Positions 3,655 to 57,046 of a DNA stretch of 60,771 nt are shown one piece after another. The notes under the pieces are model-generated. The model did not search any database, had not been told where the DNA came from, and worked only from the letters and a program-made list of their open reading frames with translations. Location of the stretch: contig CAZADR010000004.1 of NCBI GenBank assembly GCA_964484005.1, positions 1-60,771 on the forward strand, read 5' to 3'. The stretch comes from an uncultured Candidatus Saccharibacteria bacterium (GTDB lineage Bacteria > Patescibacteriota > Minisyncoccia > Phycocordibacterales > UBA9973). Each line of letters opens with the position of its first letter. The stretch's first letter is position 1. The position numbers were made by a program, and so were the translations under genes.

Positions 3655-4149
3655 ATGAACACGACCTTAAATCCAGACAAAAAAATAACTTGGTCTGCGC
3701 TGGAATACGAAGAAAAAGAAAGAACCGATGATTGGTTTTGGGCTCTTGGAATTATTATCGTGACCAGCTCTATCGCTTCAATTATTTTTGAAAATTATTT
3801 CTTTGCAGTTCTTCTCGTTTTAGCTGGTGTGCTGTTGGGATTTTTTGCAACTAAAAATCCAGAGATGCTGACTTACGAGTTAAATGTAGACGGATTGGTT
3901 GTGCGCAACCGCCTCTACCCTTACGAAAATATAAAATCTTTCTGGGTTCAGGTAGATGATTCCCCTCTCAATAATATAAAGCCACTGTTGTTTATACACT
4001 CCGAGAGAATATTTATGCCAGTAATAACTATTCCCATACAAAAAATAATGGCGGAAGACATTCATTCTATTTTTCTTTCTCAAGAAATACCTGAAATACC
4101 AATGAAAGAACACCCTTCCGAAAAAATCATGGAGATTTTAGGATTTTAG
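3655..4149 (+). CDS. Membrane protein, unknown function
   Basis: The ORF is 3637..4149; the start is placed at the second ATG (MNTTLNPDKK). Two TM helices (WFWALGIIIVTSSIASIIF, FFAVLLVLAGVLLGFF). TGtTATAAT sits immediately upstream. Confidence 0.6.
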   Translation: MNTTLNPDKKITWSALEYEEKERTDDWFWALGIIIVTSSIASIIFENYFFAVLLVLAGVLLGFFATKNPEMLTYELNVDGLVVRNRLYPYENIKSFWVQVDDSPLNNIKPLLFIHSERIFMPVITIPIQKIMAEDIHSIFLSQEIPEIPMKEHPSEKIMEILGF

Positions 4150-6008: not shown

Positions 6009-6153
6009 ATTTTTTATATAATATTATCAAACTCAATGTAATAATTTAAAAACCTACACGTCATGGTGTAAGAGTTTGTATACTTGACATGTAAAACCAT
6101 GTATGATACAATATAAGATATTACTTATTAACAGAATTTTAATACAAAACCAT

Positions 6154-8434: not shown

Positions 8435-9130
8435 ATGGCCATGGATAAAGATACAGAAAAAGAAACAGAATCATACCCAATGCGAATTAATAAATACCTC
8501 GCATTAAAACAAATCTCCACTAGGAGGGGGGCTGACGAACTGGTAGAAAATAAAAAAGTATTTATCAATGGTAAGCTTGCCGTACTAGGCAGCAAAGTAA
8601 ATGAAACAGATAAAGTAGAAATAAGAGGTTCTAAGCAAAAAGAATATGTTTACTATGCCTACAACAAGCCTATTGGCACCGAGACCAGCTCTCCAAGAGA
8701 AGACCTATTCCCTCTCGGCAGGCTAGATAAGAATTCTCACGGCCTACTCATCCTCACCAATGACGGACGCATTACCGACCGACTTTTAAATCCAAAATAT
8801 TTTCACGAAAAAGAATATGTTGTTCGTACTAAAGAAAAACTTCGCTCTAGTTTTAAACAAAAAATGGAAGCTGGAGTAAATATTGAAGGTTATCAAACTC
8901 AAAAATGCAAAGTAAAAATATTGGGTCCCAACACTTTCAAGGTAATTTTAACTGAAGGAAAGAAACACCAAATTCGCCGAATGTGTTCCACACTATTTCA
9001 AGAAGTAGCAGATTTGAAACGCGAAAGAATCATGAACATAAAACTCGGCACCCTAAAAGAAAAAGGACTCAGGGAAATAAAAGGAGAAGAACTTTCTACT
9101 TTTCTAGATCAAGTACTTCATCAATCCTAA
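8435..9130 (+). CDS. Pseudouridine synthase, RsuA/RluF family (S4 domain + catalytic domain)
   Basis: MRINKYLALKQISTRRGADELVENKKVFINGK is an S4 domain; GRLDKNSHGLLILTNDG contains the catalytic Asp motif. The start is uncertain (8435 or 8480; the ORF opens at 8414). Confidence 0.85.
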   Translation: MAMDKDTEKETESYPMRINKYLALKQISTRRGADELVENKKVFINGKLAVLGSKVNETDKVEIRGSKQKEYVYYAYNKPIGTETSSPREDLFPLGRLDKNSHGLLILTNDGRITDRLLNPKYFHEKEYVVRTKEKLRSSFKQKMEAGVNIEGYQTQKCKVKILGPNTFKVILTEGKKHQIRRMCSTLFQEVADLKRERIMNIKLGTLKEKGLREIKGEELSTFLDQVLHQS

Positions 9131-9136
9131 TTTGTT
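9096..9136. repeat. 41-bp direct repeat, copy A (flanks the DGR cassette)
   Basis: CTACTTTTCTAGATCAAGTACTTCATCAATCCTAATTTGTT compared with copy B at 11773..11813 (CTATTTTTCTAAATCCAATACTTCATCAATCCTAATTTGTT). There are 4 mismatches and the last 25 nt are identical. Confidence 0.9.
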
Positions 9137-10097
9137 GTCTTAATTTATATTCATCTCCATGCGAGAGCATCCCCAAATAAGATTGAACGGATTCCTCTTT
9201 TGGATTCTGTGCAAGATTCCTCAACATTCTGTTTTTAGTAGTGGTTCTCAACACTCTATGGTGGGGAAAATTAACCCAACCTAGGAAGTCTACACCTGAG
9301 GCAAGAGTTTTGATATAAACTTTATCTGGGTGCATTTCTAATTTTAATTTCTCTTTTAAATAACCTCTCATATATGATAGGCTAAACAGGGGTTCATCTT
9401 TGTTTTTAGAAAATAAAACAAAATCATCCGCGTAGCGTATGTAATATTTAACTTTCAATTCCCTTTTCACATATTGATCAAATTCATTCATGTAGATATT
9501 AACTAGCAATTGAGAAGTCAGGTTGCCTAAAGGTAATCCAGCTAGGCCTTGCCTAGCTGAGAAACTATCTATCAACTGCCCCAGAAGCCAGAGAACATCT
9601 TTGTCTTGAATGTGTTTCGCCAGAATTTTTTTTAATATTTTATGGTCAATATTGGCAAAAAACTTTCTGATATCGCACTTTAGAACATAGCAGGTTTTAG
9701 TACTGTTTTTTGAAACGATTCTTGAGAAATCTCGGAATCTATTAACGGCTTTGTGGGTGCCTTTGTTTACCCTGCAAGAATATGAATCATGGATGAATTT
9801 GGTGTCGAAAAATAAATATAGTTCTTGATAAATTAAGTGGTGAAGCAGCCTGTCTCTTACTGTAGCTTTATGTATTTCCCTGGGCTTTGGGTCAGAAATA
9901 TTAAACGCGTGATAACCACCATGTTTGTAAGTCTTATTTTTTAAATCACTATAAAGTTCTGATATATTGTCCATCAATCTAGCCTGAAATAAAATTACAT
10001 CTTTTTTGTTTTTCTTATCACGCAAAAATTCCTGCCAAGCTTTGAGCAGTTTTTCTATGGTTATGATATTATCGTATGTATGAATAAATTGTTTCAT
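9096..10097 (-). CDS. DGR-type reverse transcriptase
   Basis: 333 aa. Contains ...NISDPKPREIHKATVRDRLLHHLIY..., GLPLGNLTSQLLVNIYMNEFD (DGR RT signature) and YIRYADDFVLF (YxDD). The last 13 codons lie in direct repeat A and equal the C-terminus of the ABC-F gene. Confidence 0.9.
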   Translation of the reverse strand: MKQFIHTYDNIITIEKLLKAWQEFLRDKKNKKDVILFQARLMDNISELYSDLKNKTYKHGGYHAFNISDPKPREIHKATVRDRLLHHLIYQELYLFFDTKFIHDSYSCRVNKGTHKAVNRFRDFSRIVSKNSTKTCYVLKCDIRKFFANIDHKILKKILAKHIQDKDVLWLLGQLIDSFSARQGLAGLPLGNLTSQLLVNIYMNEFDQYVKRELKVKYYIRYADDFVLFSKNKDEPLFSLSYMRGYLKEKLKLEMHPDKVYIKTLASGVDFLGWVNFPHHRVLRTTTKNRMLRNLAQNPKEESVQSYLGMLSHGDEYKLRQQIRIDEVLDLEK

Positions 10098-10497
10098 GTT
10101 TCTATACCCCCCCCCCGCAGCGCTCTCAGTTCCTTCGGCGCTTCTAAAAACAAAAATTGCCTATTCTTTCTGGTTTAAAATATATAACGACTTCCCCAAA
10201 ACTCATCGCTATACCCTAGGCGGCAAAATTGAAGATTATTTTCTTGGTCTTTTGGAAAATATTTTCATATCCCTCTATCTTCCGCCGGAAACTAAAGCAT
10301 CTCGTCTTGTTGTCGCAATTTCCAAACTGGACGGCATAAAATTTTTCTTGCAAATAGCTTGGGAAAATAAATGTATCAAAGATGAGAAATATTCTTTACT
10401 TTCAGAACACTTACAAGAAATTGGCAGAATGCTCGGTGGCTGGAAGAGAGGCTTGGAAAAGAAAACTCCTCCAACTAAGGAGGAGAAACGGGTTTAG
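10096..10497 (+). CDS. avd: Avd-like four-helix-bundle accessory protein (DGR accessory variability determinant)
   Basis: 133 aa. KIAYSFWFKIYNDFPKTHRYTLGGKIEDYFLGLLENIF... resembles the four-helix-bundle / 23S rRNA IVS protein family. Its start overlaps the RT start within CATG, on the opposite strand. Confidence 0.7.
   Translation: MFLYPPPAALSVPSALLKTKIAYSFWFKIYNDFPKTHRYTLGGKIEDYFLGLLENIFISLYLPPETKASRLVVAISKLDGIKFFLQIAWENKCIKDEKYSLLSEHLQEIGRMLGGWKRGLEKKTPPTKEEKRV
10107..10116. repeat. C10/G10 homopolymer tract
   Basis: Ten consecutive C on the plus strand. They fall in codons 4-7 of avd (Y-P-P-P) and, as G10, lie 10-19 nt upstream of the RT ATG on the minus strand. Confidence 0.95.
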
Positions 10498-10500
10498 TTT

Positions 10501-10613
10501 CGGAGAGAAGATACGATGCCTGTTGTCACTGTTCCAGATGTTGTCGTTCGAAACATGGTTCAGGTTGGCGTTGAGCTTACCGTCATCGTTCACATTCACA
10601 TTGGCAACGAAGA
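10501..10613 (-). repeat. DGR template repeat (TR)
   Basis: Gap-free alignment with 11000..11112. All 21 differences are at minus-strand adenines of this copy. It translates to the Asn-rich sequence NVNVNDDGKLNANLNHVSNDNIWNSDN. Confidence 0.9.
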
Positions 10614-10901
10614 ATTGTAAGATGAGCCATCTATTTCACTGCCGACTTGAGCATATTTTAATATAAAAAGTCGTGCTGTATATTATTTTGGGGTATAGAA
10701 CCCCACCAGCTCACCCCACCAACTTTTATGTTTTTTGTTTTAAAAAAGAATTTACTCTTCTCTAAGTTTTAGCCGAGAGAACTCTCAAATTAGTTTTTAA
10801 GTAATCACGGCTTGAAGTGTTGACCGCAAGCATTTCCCGATTACAAGTTCAGTATATTAAAAAAATTCAAAAGGGTCAAAGTAAAAAAGTTTCAAAGTGG
10901 C

Positions 10902-10938
10902 AAAAAAAATCCCGAGTTACGATGATTTGTAACTCGGG
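10902..10938 (-). terminator. Rho-independent terminator of the DGR target gene
   Basis: On the minus strand: CCCGAGTTAC-aaatcatc-GTAACTCGGG followed by T8. Confidence 0.75.
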
Positions 10939-10966
10939 AGAGCGATTCGTCGCTCGACGTTTGGCG

Positions 10967-11656
10967 TTATGCCGATTCGGAGGAAACAAGTGCCTGTTGC
11001 GGAGAGAAGATACGATGCCTGAGGCCACTGCTCCAGATGTAGCCGCCCGAAACATGGCACAGGCCGGCGCGGAGCCCACCGTCATCGTCCACACCCACAC
11101 GGGCAACGAAGACATTTGAGAGGTCTTCGGTGACTACTTCATCGCCCCTGGTGAGGACGAAGAAGTTAGCGTAGCCGTTTCTCTGAAGCTTGTCTGAATC
11201 ATCCAGACAGAGACTCAGGAATTGACTACCGAGCAGACGAAACTTCTCGAGTTCCTCTGCGGTGTTGCCGAGGAACTCGGTGAACTGCCCGTTACGCACG
11301 AGCTCGTCAGCAGCAACTTCGGTCTCGGGAGCAACTCCCGAGAATACGATGCCAAAGCTTTCGAACTCTGGAGCGAAGTAGCCTCGGAATACTTTGCGCG
11401 CCGTTGAGTAGGTGTCCTTACCACTCGTCGCACCGAGCTTGAGGGTGAAGAGATGGCGGAGGTAGGTTTTGACCTCCTTCGTCGTTTCCACCACTTTCTT
11501 CCTCCACTCCCTCACAAACTTCGCGAGGTCGTTGAAGAATTCGATGTCATCCTCCGGACGACCTAGACGGTTGGCGATGTCGAGCAGAAGCCCGAGCATC
11601 TTTACAGGAACTCCGACGAGTGCACGAGTGAGCGGGCCGAGCATATCCTTAGACAT
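10967..11656 (-). CDS. DGR variable (target) protein, unknown fold, no signal peptide, GC-rich
   Basis: 229 aa. The VR occupies the C-terminal ~38 codons (...FVARVGVDDDGGLRAGLCHVSGGYIWSSGLRHRIF...). Confidence 0.85.
   Translation of the reverse strand: MSKDMLGPLTRALVGVPVKMLGLLLDIANRLGRPEDDIEFFNDLAKFVREWRKKVVETTKEVKTYLRHLFTLKLGATSGKDTYSTARKVFRGYFAPEFESFGIVFSGVAPETEVAADELVRNGQFTEFLGNTAEELEKFRLLGSQFLSLCLDDSDKLQRNGYANFFVLTRGDEVVTEDLSNVFVARVGVDDDGGLRAGLCHVSGGYIWSSGLRHRIFSPQQALVSSESA
11000..11112 (-). repeat. DGR variable repeat (VR)
   Basis: Counterpart of the TR at an offset of 499 nt. 11000..11021 is identical to TR 10501..10522 (IMH-like end). Confidence 0.9.
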
Positions 11657-11772: not shown

Positions 11773-11813
11773 CTATTTTTCTAAATCCAATACTTCATCA
11801 ATCCTAATTTGTT
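11773..11813. repeat. 41-bp direct repeat, copy B
   Basis: Lies at the 3' end of the ABC-F gene. See copy A at 9096..9136. Confidence 0.9.
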
Positions 11814-13269
11814 TTACGAATTCAGGAACATGGGAAACCAAAATCATGGCACCCTTATATTCGTCTAACGCTTTAGCTATTATAGGTAAATGACGGAAAT
11901 TTATATGATTTGTTGGCTCATCTAATATTAAGAGTCCAGGTTTTTGAAGAACTAATCGAGCAAAAGCAACCAGGCCCTTTTGCCCCTCAGATAGGTCTCC
12001 TATTTTAGTACGAATAAATTCCTCAGTAATTAAAAATCCAGCAGCAATGGAACGCATCCTTTCTTCATCTAGTCTTTCCCCGCCTTCCTGCATGGCAGTC
12101 GCCAATGATTGATAAACAGTATCTTCAAAGTTTAAAGTAGAAAAATCTTGCCTATAATATCCAATACGAATTCCCTCTTTTACTTTTTCTCCTTCTGCGT
12201 GCCCACTAGCGAGTCTTTCTAGTAGAGTAGTTTTACCTATACCATTTGGTCCCTGCAGGAGTAAGTGTTGATTTTTATTTAAAGAAATGTGCGCTTTTCG
12301 TTTTATTATTTTCCCATCTTTCATGGTGGTAAAAGAAGAAATTTTTAAAATCTCCCCTATTAAGTCTGGTTGAGAAAGAATGATAAATGGCCTAATGGCC
12401 TTGTCTTCTTTTCTGACATCCACGATTTCCTCTTCGAGTTCTTCTGCTTTTTCACGCATTCTTTTGGCCACCAAGCGTAGTCGCCCCCCTTTATAAGCAA
12501 AAACATTGGCTTGCTCTTTTTTAGCCTGAATTTCTTTTTGAAGCTGAGCATTTTTCATATTTTCTTTTTCTACCCGAGCGACAATGTCTTTTACCACATT
12601 AAAATAGTTACCTACATATTGCTCTATCTTTTTTGTATACACATCTAAATAAAGCACACCTTCAGTAAAGGCATTTAAAAATTCTGCATCGTGGGATATG
12701 ACCAAAACTGTTTTTTTATAACTAACCAAGAATTTTGTCAGGTGGGCAATCCCAGCTTTATCTAGATTATTTGTCGGTTCATCAAGTAAAAGCAAATCTG
12801 GATCTTGGATGAGGGCTCCCGCCAAAAGAAGTCGCGCTTGTTGCCCTCCAGAAAAATCTTTAATAAGCTTGTCGTGAATTTTAGTGTGTCCTCTTAAATT
12901 TACTACTTCTAACACATCATCAATTTTAGGATCAATATCGTAAACCTTAACCTTAAAACATTTTTCAAAAAATTCTCGAACAGTCAAATCTAGCTCCTCA
13001 CGAGGGATTACTTGTCTCGCCGAAGCGATACTTACACCTTTAACTACATTTATGATTCCTGATTCAGGGGTATTTAAACCAGAAATCAAACCAAAGATAG
13101 TACTCTTTCCTGCCCCATTCTGACCCATTAAGGTGAGCTTTACTCCACGCCTTATGGTAAAGCTAACTTCTTCTAAAATAGGCTTGTTTACACCCCATTC
13201 AAAAGAAACATTGTCGAATCTGACTATGGTTTCCTGTGTTTTTGGATTATCTTTAGTTTCCTTAGACAT
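11773..13269 (-). CDS. ABC-F family ATPase (two ABC cassettes, no TM domain)
   Basis: Two Walker A sites (GQNGAGKST, GPNGIGKTT), two LSGGQ-like signatures (FSGGQQ, LSEGQK) and two Walker B sites (LLLLDEPTN, LLILDEPTN), joined by a charged linker. The ATG at 13269 is preferred over the TTG at 13272. Confidence 0.9.
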   Translation of the reverse strand: MSKETKDNPKTQETIVRFDNVSFEWGVNKPILEEVSFTIRRGVKLTLMGQNGAGKSTIFGLISGLNTPESGIINVVKGVSIASARQVIPREELDLTVREFFEKCFKVKVYDIDPKIDDVLEVVNLRGHTKIHDKLIKDFSGGQQARLLLAGALIQDPDLLLLDEPTNNLDKAGIAHLTKFLVSYKKTVLVISHDAEFLNAFTEGVLYLDVYTKKIEQYVGNYFNVVKDIVARVEKENMKNAQLQKEIQAKKEQANVFAYKGGRLRLVAKRMREKAEELEEEIVDVRKEDKAIRPFIILSQPDLIGEILKISSFTTMKDGKIIKRKAHISLNKNQHLLLQGPNGIGKTTLLERLASGHAEGEKVKEGIRIGYYRQDFSTLNFEDTVYQSLATAMQEGGERLDEERMRSIAAGFLITEEFIRTKIGDLSEGQKGLVAFARLVLQKPGLLILDEPTNHINFRHLPIIAKALDEYKGAMILVSHVPEFVKQIRIDEVLDLEK

Positions 13270-14041: not shown

Positions 14042-14144
14042 GTTAAGATTTGTTATTTAAAAAGCCTTGCGCAGGCTGTCGAGCCGAGCAGTTCGCTAGC
14101 GCAGTAGCGCTAGATAGATTGCTTTATAAATAACAAATCTTAAC
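14042..14144. repeat. ~100-nt structured palindromic element, copy 1
   Basis: The outer ~24-nt arms are complementary, with inner hairpins GGCT-gtcg-AGCC and CTAGCGC-agta-GCGCTAG. The homologous copy is at 15958..16053. Confidence 0.8.
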
Positions 14145-15957: not shown

Positions 15958-16053
15958 AGAATTTGTGATTTAGAAAGCCTTGCGCAGGCCGACGGGCCGA
16001 GGTTTCGCTGGCATAGTAATGCCAGATAGATTGCTTTATAAATTACAAATTCT
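15958..16053. repeat. ~100-nt structured palindromic element, copy 2
   Basis: Same architecture as 14042..14144, with compensatory stem changes (GGCC-gacg-GGCC; CTGGCAT-agta-ATGCCAG). Its 3' arm overlaps the last codons of the minus-strand methyltransferase gene. Confidence 0.8.
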
Positions 16054-16512
16054 AAATAATGCTATTCCAAAAGCCACAGAAACATTTAGTGATTCCTTTT
16101 TACCTCTCATTGGTATCTCTGCGATAACATCACATTTATTTAACACATTTTTTGGTATACCAGTCACTTCTGCACCTACTATAAATACATTCTTTTTTTG
16201 TAATTTTACTTTTTTGTAATCAACAGACTTTTTATCTTGCTCGATGGCTATAATTTTATAGCCTTCTTTCTTCAGCTTTGTAAGCAAGGGAAAAACACTT
16301 TTCTTCTGCTCCCAAGAAACAAACTCTTCTGCCCCCAGGGCAGACTTTGCCAAATCTCCCCTTTTTCTACCAAAGCGATCTAATGGACAAGGTGTATGGC
16401 CTGTAAGATAAATCTTATCTATACCAACAGCATCAGCAGTGCGAAACATCGCCCCTACATTTTCCACACTCCGTATATTATGTAAAATTACTATATTGTT
16501 TTGGTTTTTCAT
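16036..16512 (-). CDS. SpoU/TrmH-family RNA 2'-O-methyltransferase
   Basis: LHNIRSVENVGAMFRTADAVGIDKIYLTG and a C-terminal ...IPMRGKKESLNVSVAFGIALF knot motif. Confidence 0.8.
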   Translation of the reverse strand: MKNQNNIVILHNIRSVENVGAMFRTADAVGIDKIYLTGHTPCPLDRFGRKRGDLAKSALGAEEFVSWEQKKSVFPLLTKLKKEGYKIIAIEQDKKSVDYKKVKLQKKNVFIVGAEVTGIPKNVLNKCDVIAEIPMRGKKESLNVSVAFGIALFRICNL

Positions 16513-17816
16513 TATTTTAAGAAGTTTCTATTACGCATGTTTTTATGATAATTAATAGCAAATCTGTGTGCTTCGCTGTTTGCTAATAAGATTTCCCTTT
16601 CATATTTTAAGCAAAGTTTTTTATCCCCTAAAATATCTTTCGGTTTGTGCCTTTCGTCTTTCAAAACAGAAACCACGGAAATATCTAAATTCATTTTAGC
16701 TAATACTTTTTTTGCAGTATTAATCTGTGCCTTTCCCCCGTCTACCACTATCAAATTAGGATAAGTCCATTCTGCGTGAGCCAAGCGCCTTTCTAGTACT
16801 TCTTTTAGTGCACCTGTATCGTTTGCATTATTTTGAGTTCTAATTTTAAACTTTTTATATTCACTTTTTACCACTTCCCCGTTTTCTACGACAGTCATGA
16901 CTCCAACCATGTTTTTTCCTCCCATGTGAGCAATATCATAAGCTTCTAAACGAAATAAAGCAGGGTTCTCCTTTTGTTCAGGTCCTCGGATCTCGGGGTC
17001 CCCTACCCCCGCCAGACCATTCACAAAAGCAGAACCCTGCTTTATTAAAGCTACATCATTTATATGTTTAAGAGCAAAAATTTGTCTTTTAATTTCTCCC
17101 GCTTTTTCAAATTCATGAGATTTTGAATAAGCATTCATTTCTTTCTCAAGATTTTTTAAAATCTGCTTCTTTTTACCTTCAAAAAATAATTTAATATTTC
17201 TTATATTCTGTAAATAAAGTTTTCTGTCATTTAAATCCGGCACTAGGTTTATCTGTTTATAAAACTCAATATAATTTTTACTCTTATCATCTAGGAACGG
17301 AAAAATCCTACGAACTATTTTTAATGCTTCGCGTAATTGAGTACTACTCGGAAACGGACCGAAAATTGATTGGGGTTGAAAATTTTGAATGGTGTGGGTC
17401 CCAACCCGTACTCGGGGAAGGGTTAAGCCAGAAAAATTTTTAATCCCAGTCAATTCCCTCCCACGTAAAATAATAACTTTTGGTAGCTCCTCTTTAGTTA
17501 TACAAACATAATTAAAACTTTTATCTGATTTTTCTTTAGTGTTATATTTGGGCTGATGTTTTTTAATTAAATTCGCCTCTAGAATTAATGCCTCCAACAC
17601 ACTGTCGGTAACTTCAAATTTTATTTTGTCTGCTTTAAAAACCATATCCACAAGTATTGGACCCCTGGTCTCAATCAAATCTTTTCCAAAATAACTTTTT
17701 ACCCTGTCCTTCAGTGAAGTAGCTTTACCAATATAAATTATCTCTCTACCCTTTAAAAAGAAATACACACCAGGGCTATCAGGTATTTTAATTTTTTTTA
17801 GATTTTGGCTGTTCAT
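16512..17816 (-). CDS. uvrC: Excinuclease ABC subunit C (short form, no C-terminal HhH)
   Basis: GIY-YIG domain (PGVYFFLKGREIIYIGKATSLKDRVKSYF), a UVR-like segment and a C-terminal nuclease domain. Carries a GC-rich insert at 16981..17018. Confidence 0.85.
   Translation of the reverse strand: MNSQNLKKIKIPDSPGVYFFLKGREIIYIGKATSLKDRVKSYFGKDLIETRGPILVDMVFKADKIKFEVTDSVLEALILEANLIKKHQPKYNTKEKSDKSFNYVCITKEELPKVIILRGRELTGIKNFSGLTLPRVRVGTHTIQNFQPQSIFGPFPSSTQLREALKIVRRIFPFLDDKSKNYIEFYKQINLVPDLNDRKLYLQNIRNIKLFFEGKKKQILKNLEKEMNAYSKSHEFEKAGEIKRQIFALKHINDVALIKQGSAFVNGLAGVGDPEIRGPEQKENPALFRLEAYDIAHMGGKNMVGVMTVVENGEVVKSEYKKFKIRTQNNANDTGALKEVLERRLAHAEWTYPNLIVVDGGKAQINTAKKVLAKMNLDISVVSVLKDERHKPKDILGDKKLCLKYEREILLANSEAHRFAINYHKNMRNRNFLK
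16981..17018. repeat. ~37-nt GC-rich hairpin element inside uvrC
   Basis: GGTCCTCGGATCTCGGGGTCCCCTACCCCCGCCAGACC, translated on the minus strand as GLAGVGDPEIRGP. Confidence 0.85.
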
Positions 17817-17820
17817 TTTT

Positions 17821-20481
17821 TTATTTACGCAAAACTTTCTTTAAGTATTTTCCAGTGTGACTTTTATTATTATTGGAGACATCTTCCGGAGTACCCTTGG
17901 CTACTATATTACCACCATTTACTCCCCCTTCGGGACCGATGTCTATAACATAATCAGAACTTTTTACTATATCAAGATTGTGTTCTATGAGAACCACAGT
18001 ATTTCCTTTTGACACAAGCTTATTTAAAACTTCCAAAAGTTTCTGCACATCATCATAGTGCAGACCAACGGTTGGCTCATCTAAAAGATAAATAGTTTTT
18101 TCCAAATGAGGGCGATAAAGCTCACTAGATATTTTTACACGTTGTGCTTCTCCGCCAGAAAGAGTTGTAGCAGATTGGCCAAGCTCCAAATATCCGAGCC
18201 CCACATCCATCAAAGTTTGCAGTCTATCAGAAACTGCGGGAATGTCTTTAAAGAACAAAAGCCCTTCCTCCACCGTCATATGTAAAACTTCATGTATATT
18301 TTTCTTTTTATATTTTACGGTCAGGGTTTCTTTATCAAAACGCTTACCATCACAGACATCACAGGTGACATAGACGGTCGGCAAAAAGTGCATCTCCACT
18401 GCGATTTCACCATTTCCTTCACAAGCCTCACAACGACCACCTTTTACATTAAAAGAAAAACGATTGGCCTTCCAACCACGAAGGCGTGCTTCTTCAGTCG
18501 TAGCAAAAATATCTCGAATATGAGTAAAGGAGCCTGTATAAGTCGCGATATTTGATCTGGGTGTGCGTCCAATTGGAGATTGATCTATAAGAATTGCACG
18601 AGAAAGGTATTCTGTACCAGAAAAAGAAGAACAATTAAAAACTTTTGCTGTACGATATTTTCTTTCATAGCGCGCCTGCAGATTTTTATAAAGAATCTCA
18701 TACATGAAAGAGCTTTTTCCAGAGCCAGAAACACCAGTGATAGAAGTCATCACACCTAGAGGAACCTCTATATTCATGTTATTTATATTAAAAATCTTTC
18801 CTCCAGCAATTCGTAATACTCCTTTTGCTTGGCGTCTTTTTTCTGGAATCTCTATTCTTGTTTCACCGCGAAGATAGCTCAAGGTTCTAGAATTATTTGT
18901 ATTTTTCTTGGCAGTAAGTAAATCTTCTAAGTAATCAGCTACGATTACTTTTCCTCCATGCACTCCTGCTTTTGGCCCAATATCAACAATATAATCCGAA
19001 GCATAAATAGTGTCTTCGTCATGTTCTACTATTAGAATAGTGTTTCCTAAATCTCTCAAGTTCTGTAATGTTTTAATGAGTCTATCGTTGTCTCTCTGGT
19101 GCAGGCCAATAGTAGGCTCATCGAGCACATACAATGCACCGACTAGCCTAGAGCCGAGCTGTGAAGCCAGGCGAATACGCTGTGCCTCTCCCCCAGAGAG
19201 AGTATTTGCCTTACGAGAAAGCTGTAAATAATCTAGGCCAACATCCAGCATAAATTGAAGGCGGGCCTCTATCTCTTTGACTACGGGGACAGATATTTCT
19301 TTTTCTTGTTCAGATAATTTTAAATTCTTAAAAAAATCATGCGCATCTTTTATTGAAAGCTCCGCGAGGTCTAGTATATTTACTTTCTTCTTTCCTGCTT
19401 CCAAAAAAACGTTCAGGGCCTCGGGTCGCAAGCGTGCGCCATTGCACACATCACATTTTTCTTCTCCCATAAAATATTTAGAACCGAGCCCATTACAAGC
19501 CGGACACGCACCATATGGTGAGTTGAAAGAAAAGAGCCTAGGCTCAACCTCTGGAAAAGAAAAGCCGTCATTTTTACAAGCAAATTTAGCAGACATAATA
19601 AATTCCTCTTCACCCATCTTAAAAGAAACCAATCCATCTGACTCTATCAGTGCTCTCTCTATGGCTTCTGCTAGGCGCATCCTGCTACCTTCTTTGTTAT
19701 CTTTAAATTCATGTAATGCAAAATGATCTACCAATATATCTATATTGTGTGTTTTGGTTTTAGAAAGAGTAATCTGCTCACGAAGCTTTTTCATCACGCC
19801 GTCCAAACGAATTTCTGAAAAACCTTTTCCCAGTAAATCATAAAGCAATTGATAATATTCCCCTTTTCGCCCCCTAACAACAGGAGAAAAAATACTGATT
19901 TCTGTTTCATCCCATTCCACTCCCATCACCTTCCTCTTGCTCTTAGGTTTTGGAGAAGAAAAATTCTGATCCGTGTCGGAGCCCGTCGGATTTTGACGGG
20001 TAAAGCGGGCAGAATTTTTTTTCTCCAAAATATTCACTTTCTCTAAAACAAAATTTAAAATTTCTTCATTAGATAATTTTTTAATTTCTTCTCCGCACTG
20101 TGGGCAGTGTGGGTGCCCAATACGCGCATACATCACACGCAAGTAATCATAAATCTCAGTAATCGTAGCTACAGTAGAACGCGGATTATTGGAACGAGAT
20201 TTTTGATCAATAGAAATTGCTGGAGAAAGACCCGTTATCTCATCCACATCTGGCTTTGGCATTTGGTTTAAAAACTGGCGAGCATAAGAAGACAAGGACT
20301 CCACATATCGTCTCTGCCCCTCAGCAAAGACAGTATCAAAAGCCAAGGAAGACTTTCCAGAGCCAGAGACACCAGTAATGACCACCATCTTATTGCGTGG
20401 CATTTCTACACTTATATTCTTCAAATTATGGGTCCGTGCCCCTTTTATTGTTATTTTGTCTATGTTTTTGTCTGTTTTCAT
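17821..20481 (-). CDS. uvrA: Excinuclease ABC subunit A
   Basis: [14 protein letters not shown], two ABC modules (GVSGSGKSS twice; LSGGE twice) and zinc fingers. The start is placed at the internal ATG (MKTDKNIDK); the ORF opens at 20541. Confidence 0.95.
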
Positions 20482-22860: not shown

Positions 22861-22933
22861 GCGCCCGTAGCTCAGCTGGTAGAGCAGATCCCTTTTAAGG
22901 ATAAGGTCCTCGGTTCGATCCCGAGCGGGCGCA
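22861..22933 (+). tRNA. tRNA-Lys (anticodon UUU)
   Basis: GCGCCCG acceptor, GCTC-AGCTGGTA-GAGC D-arm, anticodon loop CTTTTAA, T-arm CTCGG-TTCGATC-CCGAG. Confidence 0.9.
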
Positions 22934-22946
22934 CAGCGTTAATAAA

Positions 22947-24578: not shown

Positions 24579-27026
24579 CTATTTTACCTCCCCAAAATTG
24601 TCACCAAATCCTGAATGAACCAAGAGCGGTATGTCTGTCTTATAGTGTAAATATGACCTTAACAAAACACCCTCCATGGCATTCTTAATTATTTCATCAG
24701 CCTGTTTTAACACACTTTCCTCTATCTCATAGACTAACTCATCGTGTATCTGGAGCACCAAGTGAGCTTTTAATAGCAACCCTTCTTTCTCTAAATCTTC
24801 TTCTGTATATCTTATCGCGAGTTTTATTATATCTGCAGCGGTCCCCTGAATAGATGCATTAGTGGCTGTGCGCTCCGCCATATTTTTCAAAAAAGGAATT
24901 CTAGAATTAATATTAGGAAAATATCTCCTACGACCAAATAATGTTTCGGTAAAATAGTTTTTTGTAGCAAGGATTTTTACCTCATTTAAATAATCTCGTA
25001 CTCCAAAAAATTGATTAAAATAATTATCATAAAATTTTTGAGCTTCCTCACGAGTACCTCCAATGTTTTTACGCAAAGCTGAAACCCCCATCCCATAAAT
25101 AATTCCAAAATTTATGACCTTTGCTTTGCGTCGCATCTCGCTGTCTACTTTTTCTACTGGAACATCAAAAACAAAAGAGGCTACACCTGTATGAATATCT
25201 TTTTTGTCTCGAAAAACTTGAGTCATTTTTTTATCACCGGAAAGCATGGCAGCTACACGAAGCTCAATCTGACTATAATCAAAAGCAGAGAGTTTGTATC
25301 CACTTTGGGCAACAAAACCATTTCTTATTTTTTTTCCAAGCTCTGTTTTTATTGGTAGATTTTGCAAATTTGGATCTTGCGAAGAAAACCTTCCCGTAGT
25401 TGTATTGTTTTGCAAAAACCTTGCGTGTAATCTCCCGTCATCGCCTGCCATCTTGGGGATAACATCTATATAAGTAGATAATAGCTTTTGAAGCTCCCGA
25501 TAAGCCATTATTTCTCTGATTATTTCATTGTCTTCTTCTAGCTCTTCCAAGACTGACACCTTAGTAGAAAAAGAACCACTAGCATTTTTTTTCTTGCTGG
25601 ACTTGAGTCCAAGCTTATTAAAAAGTATCTCCCCCAATTGTTTAGGTGAATTTATATTAAATTCTTCCCCCGCCATTTTGTATATTTTTTTTGTAAGAAT
25701 ATCTAGCTCGGTGTGATATTCTTCAGATAATTTTTGAAAATATTTTTTATCTATTAAAATTCCGTGATCTTCCATTTTTTTAACTATAGAAATGATGGGC
25801 TTTTCTATTTCTTCATATACTTTGTCTAATTTTTTCTCTTTTAATTCTTTTAAGATATATTCGTATGCAACATCAAAAGAATCTGTCTTGGCAAACATTA
25901 AAATATCTTCCAATTGAGGATTTGATATATCGGAGTTAATAAGCCAAAGTGCGATACTCGCCTCTTGGAGTTTTTCCTGAGAAATTTGGGAAAGCAAAAT
26001 TTTGTCGGGTCCTCGGATCTCCGGGTCCCCTACCCCGGCCAGACCAGCTCCAAAACTTTCTTTCCCAACTTTCTCCCCAACATTATTTCCATGTTCAGGA
26101 GGATTTTGACCATTTCCAAAAAAACTTTTTAATCTTGCAAACAAACTCCTAAATTCAAAATTTATAAAAGTTTGCTCAATCTTTTTAAAATCAGCATTTT
26201 CCCAAAAAGTCTTTTCTGGTAAGGTAAAATCTATTGGTGCATCAGTCCGGATAGTGGCCAATGTCTTGGAAAACATTGCTTCTTCTTCATTGTTTTTTAA
26301 AAGCTCAATCATCCTAGGACTTATACCAGCTTTTTTAAAAGCCTCTTCGTCTTTCTTTATTTTTTTATATATCTCCTCTATGGTCCCAAAATTAGTAATC
26401 AGGTTTTCAGCTGTCTTTTCACCAATGCCTTTTATGCCAATAATATTGTCTGATGGGTCTCCTCTCAAGCCCTTATAGTCTGGTAAAAGCTTCGGCTTAA
26501 AATGAAACCTCTCCAGCACTGCATCTTCATCGTATAAAATCGTGTCATTGATTCCTTTCTTTAAAGTATAAACTTGAACTCTTTTATCATCTATCAATTG
26601 CATAGTGTCCATGTCTCCTGAAGCAATTATAATATTTAGGTCTTTGTCTTTTTTATATTTTTCAACGATTGTTCCTAGAATATCATCAGCCTCAAAACCT
26701 GGAGCATCATAAATAGGAATATCAAAACATTCAAAAATCTGTCGAGAACTTTTTAATTGAGAGATTAGTGCTTCATCAGCTTTTGCCCGACCAGCTTTGT
26801 ATGCACCATAAGCTTCGTGGCGAAAAGTTTTTTGAGGTAAATCGTAACAAGCGACGATATAATCTGGGTGAAGCTCGGCTATTATTTTCATCAACATACT
26901 CGAAAGACCGTAGAGAGCCCCAGTAGGCTCTCCTTTTGAAGACAAAAACTCAGGCAGTGCATGATAAGCACGATGTATAATCGCATGAGCATCTAGTAAA
27001 ACCAATGTTTTCTTTCCTTTAGGCAT
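24579..27026 (-). CDS. polA: DNA polymerase I (5'-3' exonuclease + polymerase domains)
   Basis: LLDAHAIIHRAYHA..., ...GIKGIGEKTA..., ...DYSQIELRV..., ...KVINFGIIYGM..., ...LQIHDELV.... Carries a GC-rich insert at 26008..26045. Confidence 0.95.
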   Translation of the reverse strand: MPKGKKTLVLLDAHAIIHRAYHALPEFLSSKGEPTGALYGLSSMLMKIIAELHPDYIVACYDLPQKTFRHEAYGAYKAGRAKADEALISQLKSSRQIFECFDIPIYDAPGFEADDILGTIVEKYKKDKDLNIIIASGDMDTMQLIDDKRVQVYTLKKGINDTILYDEDAVLERFHFKPKLLPDYKGLRGDPSDNIIGIKGIGEKTAENLITNFGTIEEIYKKIKKDEEAFKKAGISPRMIELLKNNEEEAMFSKTLATIRTDAPIDFTLPEKTFWENADFKKIEQTFINFEFRSLFARLKSFFGNGQNPPEHGNNVGEKVGKESFGAGLAGVGDPEIRGPDKILLSQISQEKLQEASIALWLINSDISNPQLEDILMFAKTDSFDVAYEYILKELKEKKLDKVYEEIEKPIISIVKKMEDHGILIDKKYFQKLSEEYHTELDILTKKIYKMAGEEFNINSPKQLGEILFNKLGLKSSKKKNASGSFSTKVSVLEELEEDNEIIREIMAYRELQKLLSTYIDVIPKMAGDDGRLHARFLQNNTTTGRFSSQDPNLQNLPIKTELGKKIRNGFVAQSGYKLSAFDYSQIELRVAAMLSGDKKMTQVFRDKKDIHTGVASFVFDVPVEKVDSEMRRKAKVINFGIIYGMGVSALRKNIGGTREEAQKFYDNYFNQFFGVRDYLNEVKILATKNYFTETLFGRRRYFPNINSRIPFLKNMAERTATNASIQGTAADIIKLAIRYTEEDLEKEGLLLKAHLVLQIHDELVYEIEESVLKQADEIIKNAMEGVLLRSYLHYKTDIPLLVHSGFGDNFGEVK
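26008..26045. repeat. ~37-nt GC-rich hairpin element inside polA
   Basis: GGTCCTCGGATCTCCGGGTCCCCTACCCCGGCCAGACC, translated as GLAGVGDPEIRGP. Relative to the uvrC copy, one stem base pair is swapped in a compensatory way (G-C to C-G). Confidence 0.85.
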
Positions 27027-37107: not shown

Positions 37108-37345
37108 ATATGTGTTTATATTTTATATATATAATTTATTAATAATACTAGTTGTGTGGATAAGTGGATAACTTTTTTAGTCTTTTATAATATAAATATT
37201 TTCTTGTTTTTGTTCCTTTTTAAAGTCTAATAACTTTGTGTTGTTTTTCTTATCTTTTTATTTTTTTAAGAAACATCTTTTTTATTATTTTTTATTAACA
37301 ACTTTTCTTTTATTTATGATTACTTTTTCGGCAGGTTATCAACAG
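37108..37345. other. Candidate oriC segment (dnaA-dnaN intergenic, DnaA boxes + AT-rich tract)
   Basis: TGTGGATAA at 37155..37163 is followed directly by aGTGGATAA at 37163..37171, and TTATCaACA lies at 37336..37344. The remainder is very AT-rich. Confidence 0.55.
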
Positions 37346-43309: not shown

Positions 43310-43310
43310 T

Positions 43311-44303: not shown

Positions 44304-44380
44304 AATTTAATTATAACACACCTTATTCAAGGACAGTCCTTGGGGAAACTCTCTTAAGGACTGTCCTTAACTCTTCCAAT

Positions 44381-46225: not shown

Positions 46226-46231
46226 AAATTT

Positions 46232-46870: not shown

Positions 46871-46877
46871 ATTTTAA

Positions 46878-47321: not shown

Positions 47322-47350
47322 AAATATAACTTCTTAACCGCCACTTGTCT

Positions 47351-48304: not shown

Positions 48305-48322
48305 TTTTATTAAGTATAACTT

Positions 48323-50662: not shown

Positions 50663-50702
50663 ATTCAATTTAAACTCAAACAAAAAATTAAAAACAATTT
50701 AA

Positions 50703-54067: not shown

Positions 54068-54919
54068 TTATTGTCCAGCTAGGGAAATCCAGTCTTTGAG
54101 TGTTAATTCCTCGGCTCTTTTGTTTCCTAAATTTTCAATCAAGGTAGAATTCTCATTTTTTTTGTAGTTTGACAAACTTTTTAAGTTTGAAGAGAGTTTT
54201 TTTCTTTTATGAGAGAAGCCAGTTTTAACTATTTCCCAAAAATTATCTTCGTTTATGTTGTTTTCCTTAAAAACTTTTCTAGATATGTTTTTTATCAAAA
54301 TTATTGCCGAATCTACCTTTGGTGCAGGTGAAAAGTACCTAGCACCTACTTTCATTATGGTTTTTGGCTCTCCGTAAGCCTTGACTGAGATGGAGAGGAT
54401 GCTCTCCTTCCCATCTCTGGCTACTATCCTCTGTGCTACTTCGTGCTGTACCAATAGCACCATCAGCTCTGGCTGATTTGTTTCTGTTAAAAACTTTTTC
54501 AAGATTGCCCCGGTGATGTTGTAAGGGATGTTTGCGATCAACTTATAATTCAGAGGTTTTAAGTTTTTAGAATGGTCTGGCTGGGAGAGGGACCCAGAGA
54601 TCCGAGGACCTGATAAAAACTTCAAAACCTCTGAATTTAAATCAAATTCTAAGATATCTTCTCGAAGTAAAATTAGTTTTTTTTCTGTAATTTCTTTTTC
54701 AAATTTTGTTTTCAAAAATTCAAAAAGCTCTCGATCTTTTTCTACTGCCACTACCAAGCCAGCTTTTTCTAAAAGTTTTTCTGTGAGTGCACCTTTACCA
54801 GGGCCAATTTCTAAAACCACATCATCAGATTTTATTTCTCCTGTTTCAATAATTTTTTTTAAGGCTATTTCTGATTTTAAGAAATTTTGTCCCAGAGATT
54901 TTTTGGCTTTGTGTATCAT
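54068..54919 (-). CDS. rsmA: 16S rRNA (adenine1518/1519-N6)-dimethyltransferase
   Basis: KSLGQNFL..., VLEIGPGKGALT, ...ANIPYNIT.... Carries a GC-rich insert at 54574..54610. Confidence 0.9.
   Translation of the reverse strand: MIHKAKKSLGQNFLKSEIALKKIIETGEIKSDDVVLEIGPGKGALTEKLLEKAGLVVAVEKDRELFEFLKTKFEKEITEKKLILLREDILEFDLNSEVLKFLSGPRISGSLSQPDHSKNLKPLNYKLIANIPYNITGAILKKFLTETNQPELMVLLVQHEVAQRIVARDGKESILSISVKAYGEPKTIMKVGARYFSPAPKVDSAIILIKNISRKVFKENNINEDNFWEIVKTGFSHKRKKLSSNLKSLSNYKKNENSTLIENLGNKRAEELTLKDWISLAGQ
54574..54610. repeat. ~37-nt GC-rich hairpin element inside rsmA (opposite orientation relative to the gene compared with the uvrC and polA copies)
   Basis: Plus strand: GGTCTGGCTGGGAGAGGGACCCAGAGATCCGAGGACC. 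Translated in the gene as GPRISGSLSQPD. Confidence 0.85.
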
Positions 54920-56994
54920 AAATATATTGTCTTTATATTATTACTTTCCCCTTCTTTTTCCAACAAGTCTCCAGGAATGTCCGAGATAAATTCTGAGGGG
55001 GTGTTTATGTTTCTAGAGCCGAAAATAGTACGAAAATTTGCAAATGATAAAAATAATTTTTCTTTAGCTCGAGTGACAGCCACATAAAAAAGTCTGCGTT
55101 CTTCTTCTCTGTCTTCATTGGTTTTTCTTTCGTTTTGTCTTTCGTGTGGAAAGAGTCCATCTTCGAGTCCTGTGACAAAAACATATTTGAATTCAAGGCC
55201 CTTTGAGGCATGCACAGTCATGAGTTTTACTGCGTTTATTGTCTCCTTCTTCTCTCCTCTTTCTATCAGTGAATCTTGGTCGCTCGCGAGTGATGCATCT
55301 TCTAAAAGCTTTTCTACACCAGCTCCGTTTTCCAAATTGTCGTATTTCAAGGCCAGGGTGGCGAGCTCTTTTATGTTCTCCAATCTTTCCATTTCTTCTT
55401 CTCCCCCACTCAATAATTCATTCTCTATGCCAGATTTTTTGACCACAAATTTTATTACGGCGCTTGCTTTTTCTGTCTTTATTTTTTCTTTTATTTCCTC
55501 CAATGTTTCATAGAAATTATTAATTTTTATTCTGGTTTTAGCTGGCAAGCTTTCTACTTCTCCTGAAAAAATTTTCACCAAAGTGGCTTTGCCTATCCCC
55601 CGTGCGGGGAAATTGATTATTCTTTTTATATCAGAGAGGCTGTCTCTATTTAATGCAGCACGAAGGTACGCGAGAGTATCTTTGATTTCTTTTCTTTCAA
55701 AAAATTTCACCCCTAAAACTTGGTACGGGATATTGTATCGGAGCATCGCCTCTTCGAGCGCTCTCGATTGGAAATTTGCACGATACAAGACTGCTACTTC
55801 GGACAGGATATTGGCGGAGTCGGAATTACTTTTTCGGATGGTCTGGCCGGGAAAGGGACCCGGAGATCCGAGGACCTCAGAAAAAGTATTTCCGATGGAG
55901 CCCCTATCTAGAAATTCTAAGATTTTTGTGGCGATAAATTCTCCTTCATCAGTTTCATCTATCGCTTCATAGAGCCCAATCTTTTCCCCTATTTCATTGT
56001 CGGTGAAAAGATTTTTGTCTGGCCTATATTTATTTTTCTTAATTATTTCATTGGCTGCTTCTAATATATTTTTTGTGGAACGATAATTTTGTTCCAATAG
56101 AATTATCTTTGCATTGGGGTAATCTTTTTCAAAACTCAAAATATTTTTTAAGTTTGCTCCACGCCAAGAATAAATATTTTGATCTGCATCCCCCACTACA
56201 CAGATATTTTTATTGTTTTCAGAAAGTAATTTAGACATCAAGTATTGCACTTCGTTGGTGTCTTGATACTCGTCTACATGTATATAATCCCATTTTTCTT
56301 GATAAATTTTTCTGATTTCTTCGTTTTCTTTCAATAGCTTGGTTGCTTTTAAAAGTAAATCATCAAAATCGAGCGCATTTTCTTTCATCTTACTTTTTTC
56401 ATACAAATTCCAAACTTGGGCCACAATCTTACCCAGATGGTCACTTGCACCCTCCGCATAGTCCGACAAATGCACAAATTTGCCCTTTTCACGGGAGATA
56501 ATACCCTTTATTTTTTTAGGATCATACATTTTAGGGTCTATGCCGAGGTCTTTTAGGATGTTTTTTATGAGAGTAGTGGCATCTCCTTCGTCTAAAATGG
56601 TGAAATATCTAGTCAATCCAAGCAATCTGGCGTTTTCCTTGATTATATATACTCCCAAAGAGTGAAAAGTGGATACAAAGGGGACTTTGTCTTGTCCTTT
56701 AGCGTTTTTCTCTATTTCTAGGCCAATTCGCTCCTTCATCTCCTTGGCTGCCTTGTTTGTAAAGGTGACAGCCAATATCTTTTCTGGAGATACCCCCTCT
56801 TTTATAAGATTTACTATCCTATGGGTAATAGTCTTGGTTTTACCCGCCCCTGCCCCCGCCACAATAAGAAGAGGACCCTTCATATGAAGAGCCGCCTCTT
56901 TTTGTTCTTTATTTAGACCTGCGAGGTGTTGCACTTCTTTAATATAGCACAGATTTTTATTTATTTTTTCTTTATTTAAGCTATTTTTGGGCAT
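54916..56994 (-). CDS. pcrA: ATP-dependent DNA helicase PcrA/UvrD family
   Basis: GAGAGKTKTITHR, ...VTFTNKAAKEM..., HVDEYQDTN, ...VHASKGLEF.... ATG at 56994 (the ORF opens at a TTG at 57003). ATGA overlap with rsmA. Confidence 0.9.
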   Translation of the reverse strand: MPKNSLNKEKINKNLCYIKEVQHLAGLNKEQKEAALHMKGPLLIVAGAGAGKTKTITHRIVNLIKEGVSPEKILAVTFTNKAAKEMKERIGLEIEKNAKGQDKVPFVSTFHSLGVYIIKENARLLGLTRYFTILDEGDATTLIKNILKDLGIDPKMYDPKKIKGIISREKGKFVHLSDYAEGASDHLGKIVAQVWNLYEKSKMKENALDFDDLLLKATKLLKENEEIRKIYQEKWDYIHVDEYQDTNEVQYLMSKLLSENNKNICVVGDADQNIYSWRGANLKNILSFEKDYPNAKIILLEQNYRSTKNILEAANEIIKKNKYRPDKNLFTDNEIGEKIGLYEAIDETDEGEFIATKILEFLDRGSIGNTFSEVLGSPGPFPGQTIRKSNSDSANILSEVAVLYRANFQSRALEEAMLRYNIPYQVLGVKFFERKEIKDTLAYLRAALNRDSLSDIKRIINFPARGIGKATLVKIFSGEVESLPAKTRIKINNFYETLEEIKEKIKTEKASAVIKFVVKKSGIENELLSGGEEEMERLENIKELATLALKYDNLENGAGVEKLLEDASLASDQDSLIERGEKKETINAVKLMTVHASKGLEFKYVFVTGLEDGLFPHERQNERKTNEDREEERRLFYVAVTRAKEKLFLSFANFRTIFGSRNINTPSEFISDIPGDLLEKEGESNNIKTIYL
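55840..55876. repeat. ~37-nt GC-rich hairpin element inside pcrA
   Basis: Plus strand: GGTCTGGCCGGGAAAGGGACCCGGAGATCCGAGGACC. Translated as VLGSPGPFPGQT, a different frame from the rsmA copy. Confidence 0.85.
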
Positions 56995-57046
56995 TTTTGT
57001 CAAACCTTAGGTCCAAAATAGTTTTCCACAGGAGGCCCCTTCCAAA

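Follow-up and report, generated by a model that had tools for sequence, protein, structure and literature searches.

Why does one GC-rich sequence recur inside several housekeeping genes of an AT-rich bacterial genome? The question is raised by a stretch of 60,771 nt (the window), contig CAZADR010000004.1 of assembly GCA_964484005.1, from an uncultured Candidatus Saccharibacteria bacterium. A first-pass annotation of this DNA had proposed a family of hairpin elements of about 37 nt, inserted in frame and perhaps akin to the Rickettsia palindromic elements (RPEs). The four copies of the GC-rich core were confirmed, at 16981-17018 and 26008-26045 on the plus strand and, as the reverse complement, at 54574-54610 and 55840-55876; the G+C content of the window is indeed low (~36%). 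The 14-nt head of the core, GGTCCTCGGATCTC, occurs four times in the window, while 0.1 occurrences are expected from shuffles. A family profile of 96 members matched exactly these four copies, with E values from 1e-12 to 1e-19. As I describe below, the copies probably belong to a family of small mobile DNA whose hairpin stem derives from the flank of the target.

As had been annotated, all four copies lie within long open reading frames (ORFs). Every host ORF is on the minus strand: uvrC (16512-17816), polA (24579-27026), rsmA (54068-54919), and pcrA (54916-57003). Relative to its host gene, the unit runs antisense in uvrC and polA and sense in rsmA and pcrA. UvrC and PolA do share the same added peptide, GLAGVGDPEIRGP. 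The core encodes GPRISGSLSQPD in rsmA and, being in another frame, VLGSPGPFPGQT in pcrA. Besides GLAGVGDPEIRGP, SGPRISGSLSQPDH is an example of a predicted peptide that would cross an insert.

Is the 37-nt sequence itself the hairpin, as the annotation assumed? This part did not survive, since the 37/38-nt core alone folds like shuffled sequence (z about +0.2). It was revealed that every core in the window is bracketed by locus-specific inverted repeats of 22-32 nt with 75-96% complementarity, and that the extended hairpins (~90-100 nt) have folding energies of -20 to -27 kcal/mol as DNA (z -3.8 to -8.0). The significant structure is this ~90-100-nt hairpin with locus-specific arms and the core at its tip, which had been missed. 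The four hairpins are as follows.

16954..17046, plus strand: copy 1, whole hairpin in uvrC, with 24-nt arms, 96% complementary (-27.1 kcal/mol, z -8.0). It consists of arm 16954-16977, native (ENPALF on the reverse strand); TCA 16978-16980; 38-nt core 16981-17018; ATTC 17019-17022; and arm 17023-17046, the inverted copy (KQGSAF on the reverse strand).
25979..26075, plus strand: copy 2, whole hairpin in the linker that joins the 5'-nuclease part of polA to its polymerase part (z -4.2). The core is 26008-26045, the arms 25979-26002 and 26052-26075 (24 nt, 83% complementary), and the linkers are diverged (gtcg and agctcc).
54547..54637, minus strand: copy 3, whole hairpin in rsmA, with the unit in the same sense as the gene and encoding ...KFLSGPRISGSLSQPDHSKNLKP... 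(z -7.5). The core is 54574-54610 and the arms are 54547-54568 and 54616-54637 (22 nt, 86% complementary).
55807..55908, minus strand: copy 4, whole hairpin in the pcrA loop preceding helicase motif IV (AVLYRANFQSR). The core is 55840-55876 and the tight arms are 55820-55835 and 55880-55895, with weaker pairing as far as 55807 and 55908.

The sequence common to the copies is only ~44-56 nt in length and comprises a conserved unit of TCA, the core, and RTTC, with the adjoining T-run. When the flanks were aligned on the core, an invariant TTT (positions -8 to -6), T, N, and TCA were found to precede it, and A or G, T, T, C, N, A, and an invariant AAA (+7 to +9) to follow it. The TCA and ATTC segments are opposite one another and unpaired, and pairing starts with positions -4 and +5 and continues outward. 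Beyond the A/T runs, the arm sequence is locus-specific (entropy of ~1.8-1.9 bits), yet the two arms are complementary. An arm and its own partner pair at 0.5-1.0 per position, compared with 0.25-0.47 when partners are shuffled between loci; over the 15 outer positions, this amounts to 10.3 pairs with the own partner versus 4.4 with the arms of other loci. All four Watson-Crick pair types are present at each outer arm position. The compensatory change noticed earlier in the central stem is real, with G:C, C:G, and T:A among the window copies. In the 96 family members, the core pair Y15:R29 covaries (T:A in 52 and C:G in 41), and G:C is found in the 38-nt variant. Since core positions 1-9, 11, 14, and 16-22 and the CCAGAC tail were fixed in the search patterns, the invariance of these positions is by construction.

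Filled and empty insertion sites

Where do the locus-specific arms come from? The first uvrC site can be compared with empty sites in two relatives. One is L222, a JGI contig syntenic with the window from 3.6 to 27.5 kb, whose proteins are 73-97% identical to those of the window (UvrA 96.6%, RuvA 94%, PolA 89%, and UvrC 73% over the whole alignment or ~80% outside the inserts). The other is L332 (P0191). In the direction of the gene, the site reads as follows.

Window: gct tta ata aag cag ggt tct gct ttt gtg aat [core, antisense] t gaa caa aag GAG AAC CCT GCT TTA TTT CGT
L222, empty: ...aca GAG AAC CCT GCG ACA TTT CGT
L332, empty: aaa cag gaa aat aaa aaa gaa aaa aac tta ttc aga

The two empty sites show that native, A-rich coding sequence forms the arm that encodes (K)ENPALF. 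The other arm (aag cag ggt tct gct ttt) is the reverse complement of the native arm and has no counterpart in L222 or L332. The insertion thus amounts to 63 nt or 21 amino acid residues, composed of a linker, the 38-nt core, a linker, and a 16-nt inverted copy. At the outer ends of the inverted repeat, 6-7 nt are native on either side, as microhomology-guided rejoining would leave them. At a second uvrC site, which has another core but the same ATTC-AAAA linker, the same picture of one native arm was obtained. At the site in the gene for the CCA-adding enzyme, the upstream arm always starts with the native conserved RR[LF][AS]E beside the HDIGKP motif, and the downstream arm tracks it. In these comparisons, one arm is shown to be the native flank, and the other a reverse-complement copy of it, 10-25 nt in length.

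At the CCA-enzyme site, both orientations of the unit occur between the same arms (aattta/TCA-core-ATGC/taaatt and aattta/GAAC-antisense core-TGA/taaatt). A rule that the native arm always lies on the TCA side was considered; it holds for both of the fresh uvrC sites but not for the CCA-enzyme site, and was dropped. A pair of loci with another core family, the empty L330 and the filled L331, gave a different result. The 84-nt insert of L331 lies at the centre of a native mini-palindrome, GCAAAATG.TTTTGC, and thus both short arms are native there. One copy (L287) lacks any T-run. Together with the invariant TTT...AAA and the A-rich native uvrC site, this suggests that the A/T run may belong to the target rather than to the mobile unit.

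Gain and loss can be followed in the syntenic relative. The family profile detected no copy of this core in L222 (21 kb), and the L222 uvrC gene is without either window insert. The L222 polA linker has a different hairpin with 19-nt arms (1892-1910 and 1973-1991) and a 62-nt core. This L222 hairpin (1854-2017) is nested in a perfect 12-nt outer inverted repeat, AAGTTTTTTTGG and CCAAAAAAACTT, which is partly native in both genomes; this suggests that the polA linker may have seen several generations of insertion. These comparisons show that the elements turn over fast and that permissive loops are reused by different core families.

The inserts are tolerated in permissive loops, and the idea that the added peptides are insertions was borne out, since the insert residues are absent from orthologues in the uvrC, rsmA, and pcrA comparisons. 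Among 120 RsmA homologues, a minority is without the insert (...NIL-HNYKIIANIPY), as is KsgA of B. subtilis. Most hold this core in one orientation (SGPRFSGSLSRPDHS) and some in the other (NGLAGVGDPENRGP), while other homologues have unlike GC-rich inserts at the identical position (TLGRSDGDGQRKFSAENFRGESEN, VLKSIAQAD..., PLLISPLAGGE...). In the AlphaFold model of the window RsmA (mean predicted local distance difference test score, pLDDT, 85.8; predicted template modelling score 0.83), the pLDDT falls to 52-55 only at residues 101-120, the insert, which forms a coil between the helix 94-98 and the strand 126-130. The PcrA loop before motif IV has 5-15 residues in insert-free orthologues and 38 in the window. 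Many PcrA orthologues hold the same core with covarying arms, and the orthologous polA sites of L002, L129, L161, and L171 are likewise occupied, also with covarying arms. The UvrC linker directly before the C-terminal endonuclease domain is another insertion hotspot. Such hotspots are shared by unrelated cores, by both orientations, and by up to three tandem elements. In L022, L114, and L126, two or three differing hairpin elements stand in tandem in the PcrA loop, which grows from ~5 to ~70 residues.

Does the hairpin ever leave a scar? The rsmA site of L030 (~3790-3840) reads ...gataaaattttttTCAGATTCAtcacaaaaattttgt..., which resembles the arms and linkers minus the core and may be an excision or deletion scar. 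However, a strict pattern search for core-less scars gave nothing above the reversed-sequence control. Core-less scars as evidence of excision were therefore abandoned, and L030 is a lone anecdote.

The family and its possible origin

Is this core confined to the window? A strict-head exact-pattern scan gave 21 loci. With the pattern relaxed at four variable positions, at least 118 genome stretches and at least 120 metagenome stretches were found, and at least 124 unique copies were left from both scans after removal of duplicates. The proposed family is thus abundant beyond the window. Among the matches listed, to which the following counts also refer, full elements were found only in loci of 31-45% G+C, and the metagenome-assembled genomes that hold them are labelled Patescibacteria, Paceibacterota, Nomurabacteria, Minisyncoccia, or, automatically, Saccharibacteria. 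Matches in GC-rich genomes (Streptomyces, Actinomycetota, and others) are chance half-matches in which the remainder of the element is missing, and were not accepted as members. Carriage of the element by phages was considered and rejected, as a scan of viral contigs gave no match.

Most copies are genic. Inside a stop-to-stop ORF of at least 600 nt lie 86 of the 124 copies (69%); 7 are ambiguous and 31 are non-genic, about a quarter of the copies being intergenic. The host genes include those for UvrC, PolA, RsmA, PcrA, the CCA-adding enzyme, and TsaD. Copies make use of five of the unit's six reading frames, and the sole stop-containing frame (..MVWLG*G..RT*) is used by none of the 86 genic copies, indicating selection for read-through translation. 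The non-genic copies occupy very short spacers, which separate tandem genes in 15 cases, convergent genes in 4, and divergent genes in 4. For ten tandem intergenic copies that were examined, the flanking ORFs are distinct complete genes, such as RecA/EF-P and PolA/next gene, so that no gene has been split by an out-of-frame copy in these cases. In summary, it was shown that copies persist only where they are harmless, namely, in spacers or at in-frame, stop-free sites in disordered loops and linkers, where they add 20-33 residues. A role as intrinsic terminators was considered and rejected because most copies are in ORFs and the intergenic ones are not confined to the 3' ends of genes.

With Rfam 15, only tRNAs were found in the whole window at the gathering score; in the E-value mode, copy 1 matched no family, giving just sub-threshold generic miRNA-precursor matches. 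A longer autonomous parent was sought among ~300 loci, where no split or extended copies were found. Half-matches in low-GC loci were considered as traces of such a parent, and all of them turned out to be point variants of complete elements.

From these results, the elements probably represent a non-autonomous family of small mobile DNA that is specific to Patescibacteria (Paceibacteria/Nomurabacteria-type) and whose hairpin stem is obtained from an inverted copy of the target flank or from a small native palindrome. The mobile unit would correspond to the conserved ~44 nt, in which TCA and RTTC enclose a GC-rich, asymmetric core of 36-38 nt that has a short stem of its own; the copies are shown to land beside short T/A runs. 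The GGTC/GACC stem of the unit would fold the new 3' end back onto the flank, and a polymerase would then make a reversed copy of the flank through fold-back (snap-back) or template-switch synthesis. The strand would return to its original template via the 6-7 nt of microhomology. The unit might be moved by host replication and repair alone or by some enzyme. It is well established that fold-back at DNA breaks gives inverted duplications of 5-34 bp (PMC11724301), and the creation of hairpins by template switching is known (PMC10710096). It is also conceivable, though this is a tentative idea that I hold with more doubt than belief, that this family, and at least five more core families built alike in the same genomes, exemplify a mode of DNA insertion not yet described. 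In that mode, a short hairpin unit would be joined next to an A/T run, the insertion machinery would write an inverted copy of the flank (an "inverted target-site duplication"), and the resulting long, locus-specific hairpin would serve as a preferred landing pad for later elements.

Several observations weigh against a mobile unit with a copied flank. The fold-back step was deduced from only two or three pairs of filled and empty sites, in genomes that are not closely related, and the arms could instead have grown once the unit was in place. The side of the unit on which the native arm lies varies, which needs later flipping or orientation-independent insertion. The sole candidate for a target-site duplication is an ambiguous 2 nt (TT/TA) in L331; none was noted at the uvrC sites, and no systematic search was made. 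Apart from a reverse transcriptase described below, a Pfam scan of 30 ORFs of the window detected neither a transposase or other dedicated enzyme nor a RAYT (repetitive extragenic palindrome-associated tyrosine transposase, a Y1 HUH transposase). The conservation of the core is partly imposed by the search patterns, and purifying selection on the core, and hence a function, may still play a part.

Could the palindromes have been there before the insertions? If hairpins or cruciforms were the targets, both arms would be native or left by earlier insertions, and long arms would build up as one palindromic scar is filled, loses its core, and is filled again over several rounds, without any inverted copying. 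The exactly central position of the L331 insert in the native palindrome of L330 fits this explanation, as does the reuse of hotspots between the same arms by many core families and in both orientations. The invariant TTT...AAA flanks would suit a palindromic target of a T-run and an A-run, and L030 may represent arms minus the core. On the other hand, the empty uvrC sites of L222 and L332 are without a palindrome and without the second arm, where the window has 24-nt arms of 96% complementarity. Core-less scars did not exceed the control in the systematic search, and native coding sequence is not expected to hold long palindromes. I consider this explanation rather unlikely, although it is the strongest of the alternatives. 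It is more improbable that the core is a functional nucleic acid motif of the host, such as a protein-binding site on DNA or mRNA or a signal for RNA processing or stability, kept by selection at the nucleotide level. Conservation of the core nucleotides across frames and orientations, the Y15:R29 covariation, the covariation of arms between orthologous copies, and the continued occupation of orthologous sites across species would all be expected of such a motif. However, close relatives differ in presence and absence, other lineages have unrelated cores in the same loops, and the copies occur in both orientations, in coding sequence and in every kind of intergenic context; the conservation itself is largely due to the search pattern, and there is no Rfam match.

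The peptide might never be made at all if the insert were removed from RNA like an intron or bypassed by the ribosome. The byp elements of yeast mitochondria are a precedent for translational bypass, and the great stability of the hairpin and its GC-rich core in an AT-rich mRNA speak in favour. Since all 86 genic copies are in frame and free of stop codons, with the stop-containing frame left unused, and the ten tandem intergenic copies lie between complete genes rather than in split genes, there is very little to recommend this possibility. A constant sequence between inverted local copies is also just what an artefact of a hairpin adapter or a chimeric fold-back in library construction or assembly would look like. 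The elements are, however, always internal to contigs, of which hundreds, assembled by independent projects and drawn from several sources (NCBI, JGI, ENA, and Logan), contain them; their frames are preserved, their arms are imperfect, and orthologous copies have diverged, so that an artefact is hardly credible. The mobile family with a flank-derived stem is thus the best explanation.

Other inserts and neighbouring features

The window has four extra inserts with this architecture, whose cores belong to three further families. Two of them lie between genes, and uvrC and uvrA hold one each.

17364..17455, minus strand: second uvrC hairpin, with 23-nt arms, 87% complementary, and a different core (on the gene strand, GGCTTAACCCTTCCCCGAGTACGGGTTGGGACCCACACC then ATTC-AAAA).
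19948..20030: uvrA hairpin of another core family, with the core ATCCGTGTCGGAGCCCGTCGGATTTTGACGGGTAAAGCGGG and 21-nt arms.
14042..14144: intergenic hairpin of a fourth core family, CTTGCGCAGGC...GATAGATT, with 24-nt arms.
15958..16053: second hairpin of the fourth family, between convergent fpg-like and spoU-like genes, with 21-nt arms.

In total, at least 8 inserts of this architecture lie in 61 kb. The uvrC insert at 17364-17455 is absent in L222, and its gene-upstream arm (IKNF) is native; it belongs to a related class but a separate family. The uvrA insert is probably common to L222, as the UvrA alignment (96.6% identity) has a single gap.

The annotation had also noted a resemblance between the start of the core and a tRNA-Lys gene (22861-22934). 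The match it placed at 22906-22914 is actually at 22905-22913, and the resemblance exists but is of borderline significance only (E 0.07). The majority variant of the core (GGTT, where the window has GGAT) shares 13 nt, AGGTCCTCGGTTC, with the tRNA-Lys at 22904-22916, spanning the variable loop, the 5' T-stem, and the start of the T-loop. In the window as well as in L222, this is the best non-element match of the family profile. The shared sequence may have remained from an origin in a tRNA, or it may be due to chance. With an E value of 0.07 and the remaining core being not tRNA-like, a tRNA origin was not adopted and is left as an unproven lead.

A diversity-generating retroelement (DGR) lies at 9096-11656. 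It comprises a reverse transcriptase gene (9096-10097, minus strand; RVT_1, E 2e-22), a gene resembling bAvd (10096-10497, plus strand), a template repeat of 126 nt (10497-10622), and a variable repeat of 79% identity (10996-11121), which lies at the 3' end of an ORF (10967-11656). The whole DGR cassette is absent at the corresponding position of L222. It is flanked by a 50-nt direct repeat (84% identical; 9096-9145 and 11773-11822), the copies of which are the 3' ends of the reverse transcriptase ORF and of an ATP-binding cassette (ABC) ATPase gene and may mark the insertion of the cassette. The DGR reverse transcriptase was considered as the mover of the hairpins and set aside, as no evidence links the two.

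The dnaN and dnaA genes (36010-38686), with yidC and jag on the far side, suggest a replication origin near 38.7-39.5 kb. The core copies change strand across this putative origin (plus at 17 and 26 kb, minus at 54.6 and 55.8 kb), while the host genes are all on the minus strand. The switch might reflect a replication-strand bias, but the copies number only four, and GC skew in the window was uninformative for placing the origin and for the bias.

Two tandem 182-nt segments (97% identical, 201-nt spacing) are present at 6499-6881 inside a large ORF (6103-8352). The L222 counterpart of this ORF is a CLIPPER-domain surface protein with a strongly different N-terminal half. A type IV secretion-like cluster (TrbC/VirB2-like pilin, TraG/VirB4-like ATPase, and PrgI-like) occupies 42359-53066 and is adjoined by two ORFs of ~787 amino acids without a Pfam match.

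Significance and comparison with known systems

Patescibacteria, also known as the candidate phyla radiation (CPR), account for much of the diversity of bacteria and live with very small genomes; even so, essential enzymes are here repeatedly colonised by short hairpins. The colonised proteins are enzymes of repair, replication, and RNA modification: UvrA, UvrC, PolA, PcrA, RsmA, the CCA-adding enzyme, and TsaD. The elements would account for many odd lineage-specific insertions in the proteins of these organisms. The inserts affect homology detection, alignment-based phylogeny, and structure prediction, and they place strong hairpins in mRNAs, which may influence expression. The flank-derived stem is a distinctive molecular signature. 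It suggests that a repeat family spreads with the help of fold-back or template switching, a step for which no description in bacterial repeat elements was found. If a dedicated enzyme drives the mode of insertion considered above, this would be a new class of prokaryotic mobile elements and a major source of lineage-specific protein insertions in the CPR. A full-text literature search yielded no description of such elements in the CPR or Patescibacteria.

Are the elements RPEs, as first suggested? Part of that suggestion stands: there is a repeat family, its members are insertions relative to orthologues, and they lie in frame in housekeeping genes. Membership in the RPE family and the RPE anatomy do not, in view of the locus-specific arms. 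RPE-1 to RPE-8 were reportedly described by Ogata et al. in 2000. RPEs are mentioned in PMC1779305 and PMC10969869. The elements of this study resemble RPEs in being short non-coding palindromic repeats of a small AT-rich genome, found in spacers and in frame in conserved genes, tolerated in surface loops, and lacking an identified transposase. By their descriptions, however, RPEs are ~100-150 bp in length and conserved over the full length, while the Patescibacteria elements share ~44-56 nt, the stem here being made of local host sequence; the RPE hosts are Alphaproteobacteria rather than Patescibacteria. Judged by these descriptions, the elements are RPE-like in behaviour but are not members of the RPE family.

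In fungal mitochondria, GC clusters, byp elements, and double-hairpin elements are GC-rich mobile hairpins in very AT-rich genomes. Like the elements of this study, they can sit in coding sequence, and several families coexist. Unlike them, the mitochondrial elements are organellar, and some are bypassed by the ribosome rather than translated. To my knowledge, no flank-derived stem has been described for them. Functionally, RPEs and mitochondrial GC clusters are the closest known systems.

Bacterial MITEs (miniature inverted-repeat transposable elements), such as Correia, ERIC, RUP, and BOX, are reviewed in PMC10969869 and PMC2229807. They are similarly non-autonomous, ~100 bp in length, able to fold into long hairpins, and located between and within genes. 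However, MITEs have common terminal inverted repeats, direct target-site duplications, and an identifiable parent insertion sequence, whereas the arms here are unique to each locus (4.4/15 pairs between loci versus 10.3/15 within a locus) and no parent was found among the ~300 loci. Repetitive extragenic palindromes (REPs) and bacterial interspersed mosaic elements (BIMEs), which are associated with RAYT transposases, are extragenic, 20-40 nt in length, and have a GTAG or CGTC head (PMC3733652). REPs are also short GC-rich imperfect palindromes in many copies, but the core described here starts with GGTCC and ends with GACC, and 69% of the listed copies are genic.

Quasipalindrome mutagenesis and the related fold-back and template-switch inverted duplications (PMC11724301, PMC10710096, and PMC5941160) likewise produce short inverted copies of adjacent sequence, make or perfect hairpins, and rejoin at microhomology. 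What is known of them is a role in mutation where DNA breaks or forks stall, and not a part in spreading a repeat family. In the literature searched, there is no report for bacterial repeat elements of a flank-derived, locus-specific stem, and such a stem, common to several core families in the same hotspots, is the distinctive new feature of these elements.

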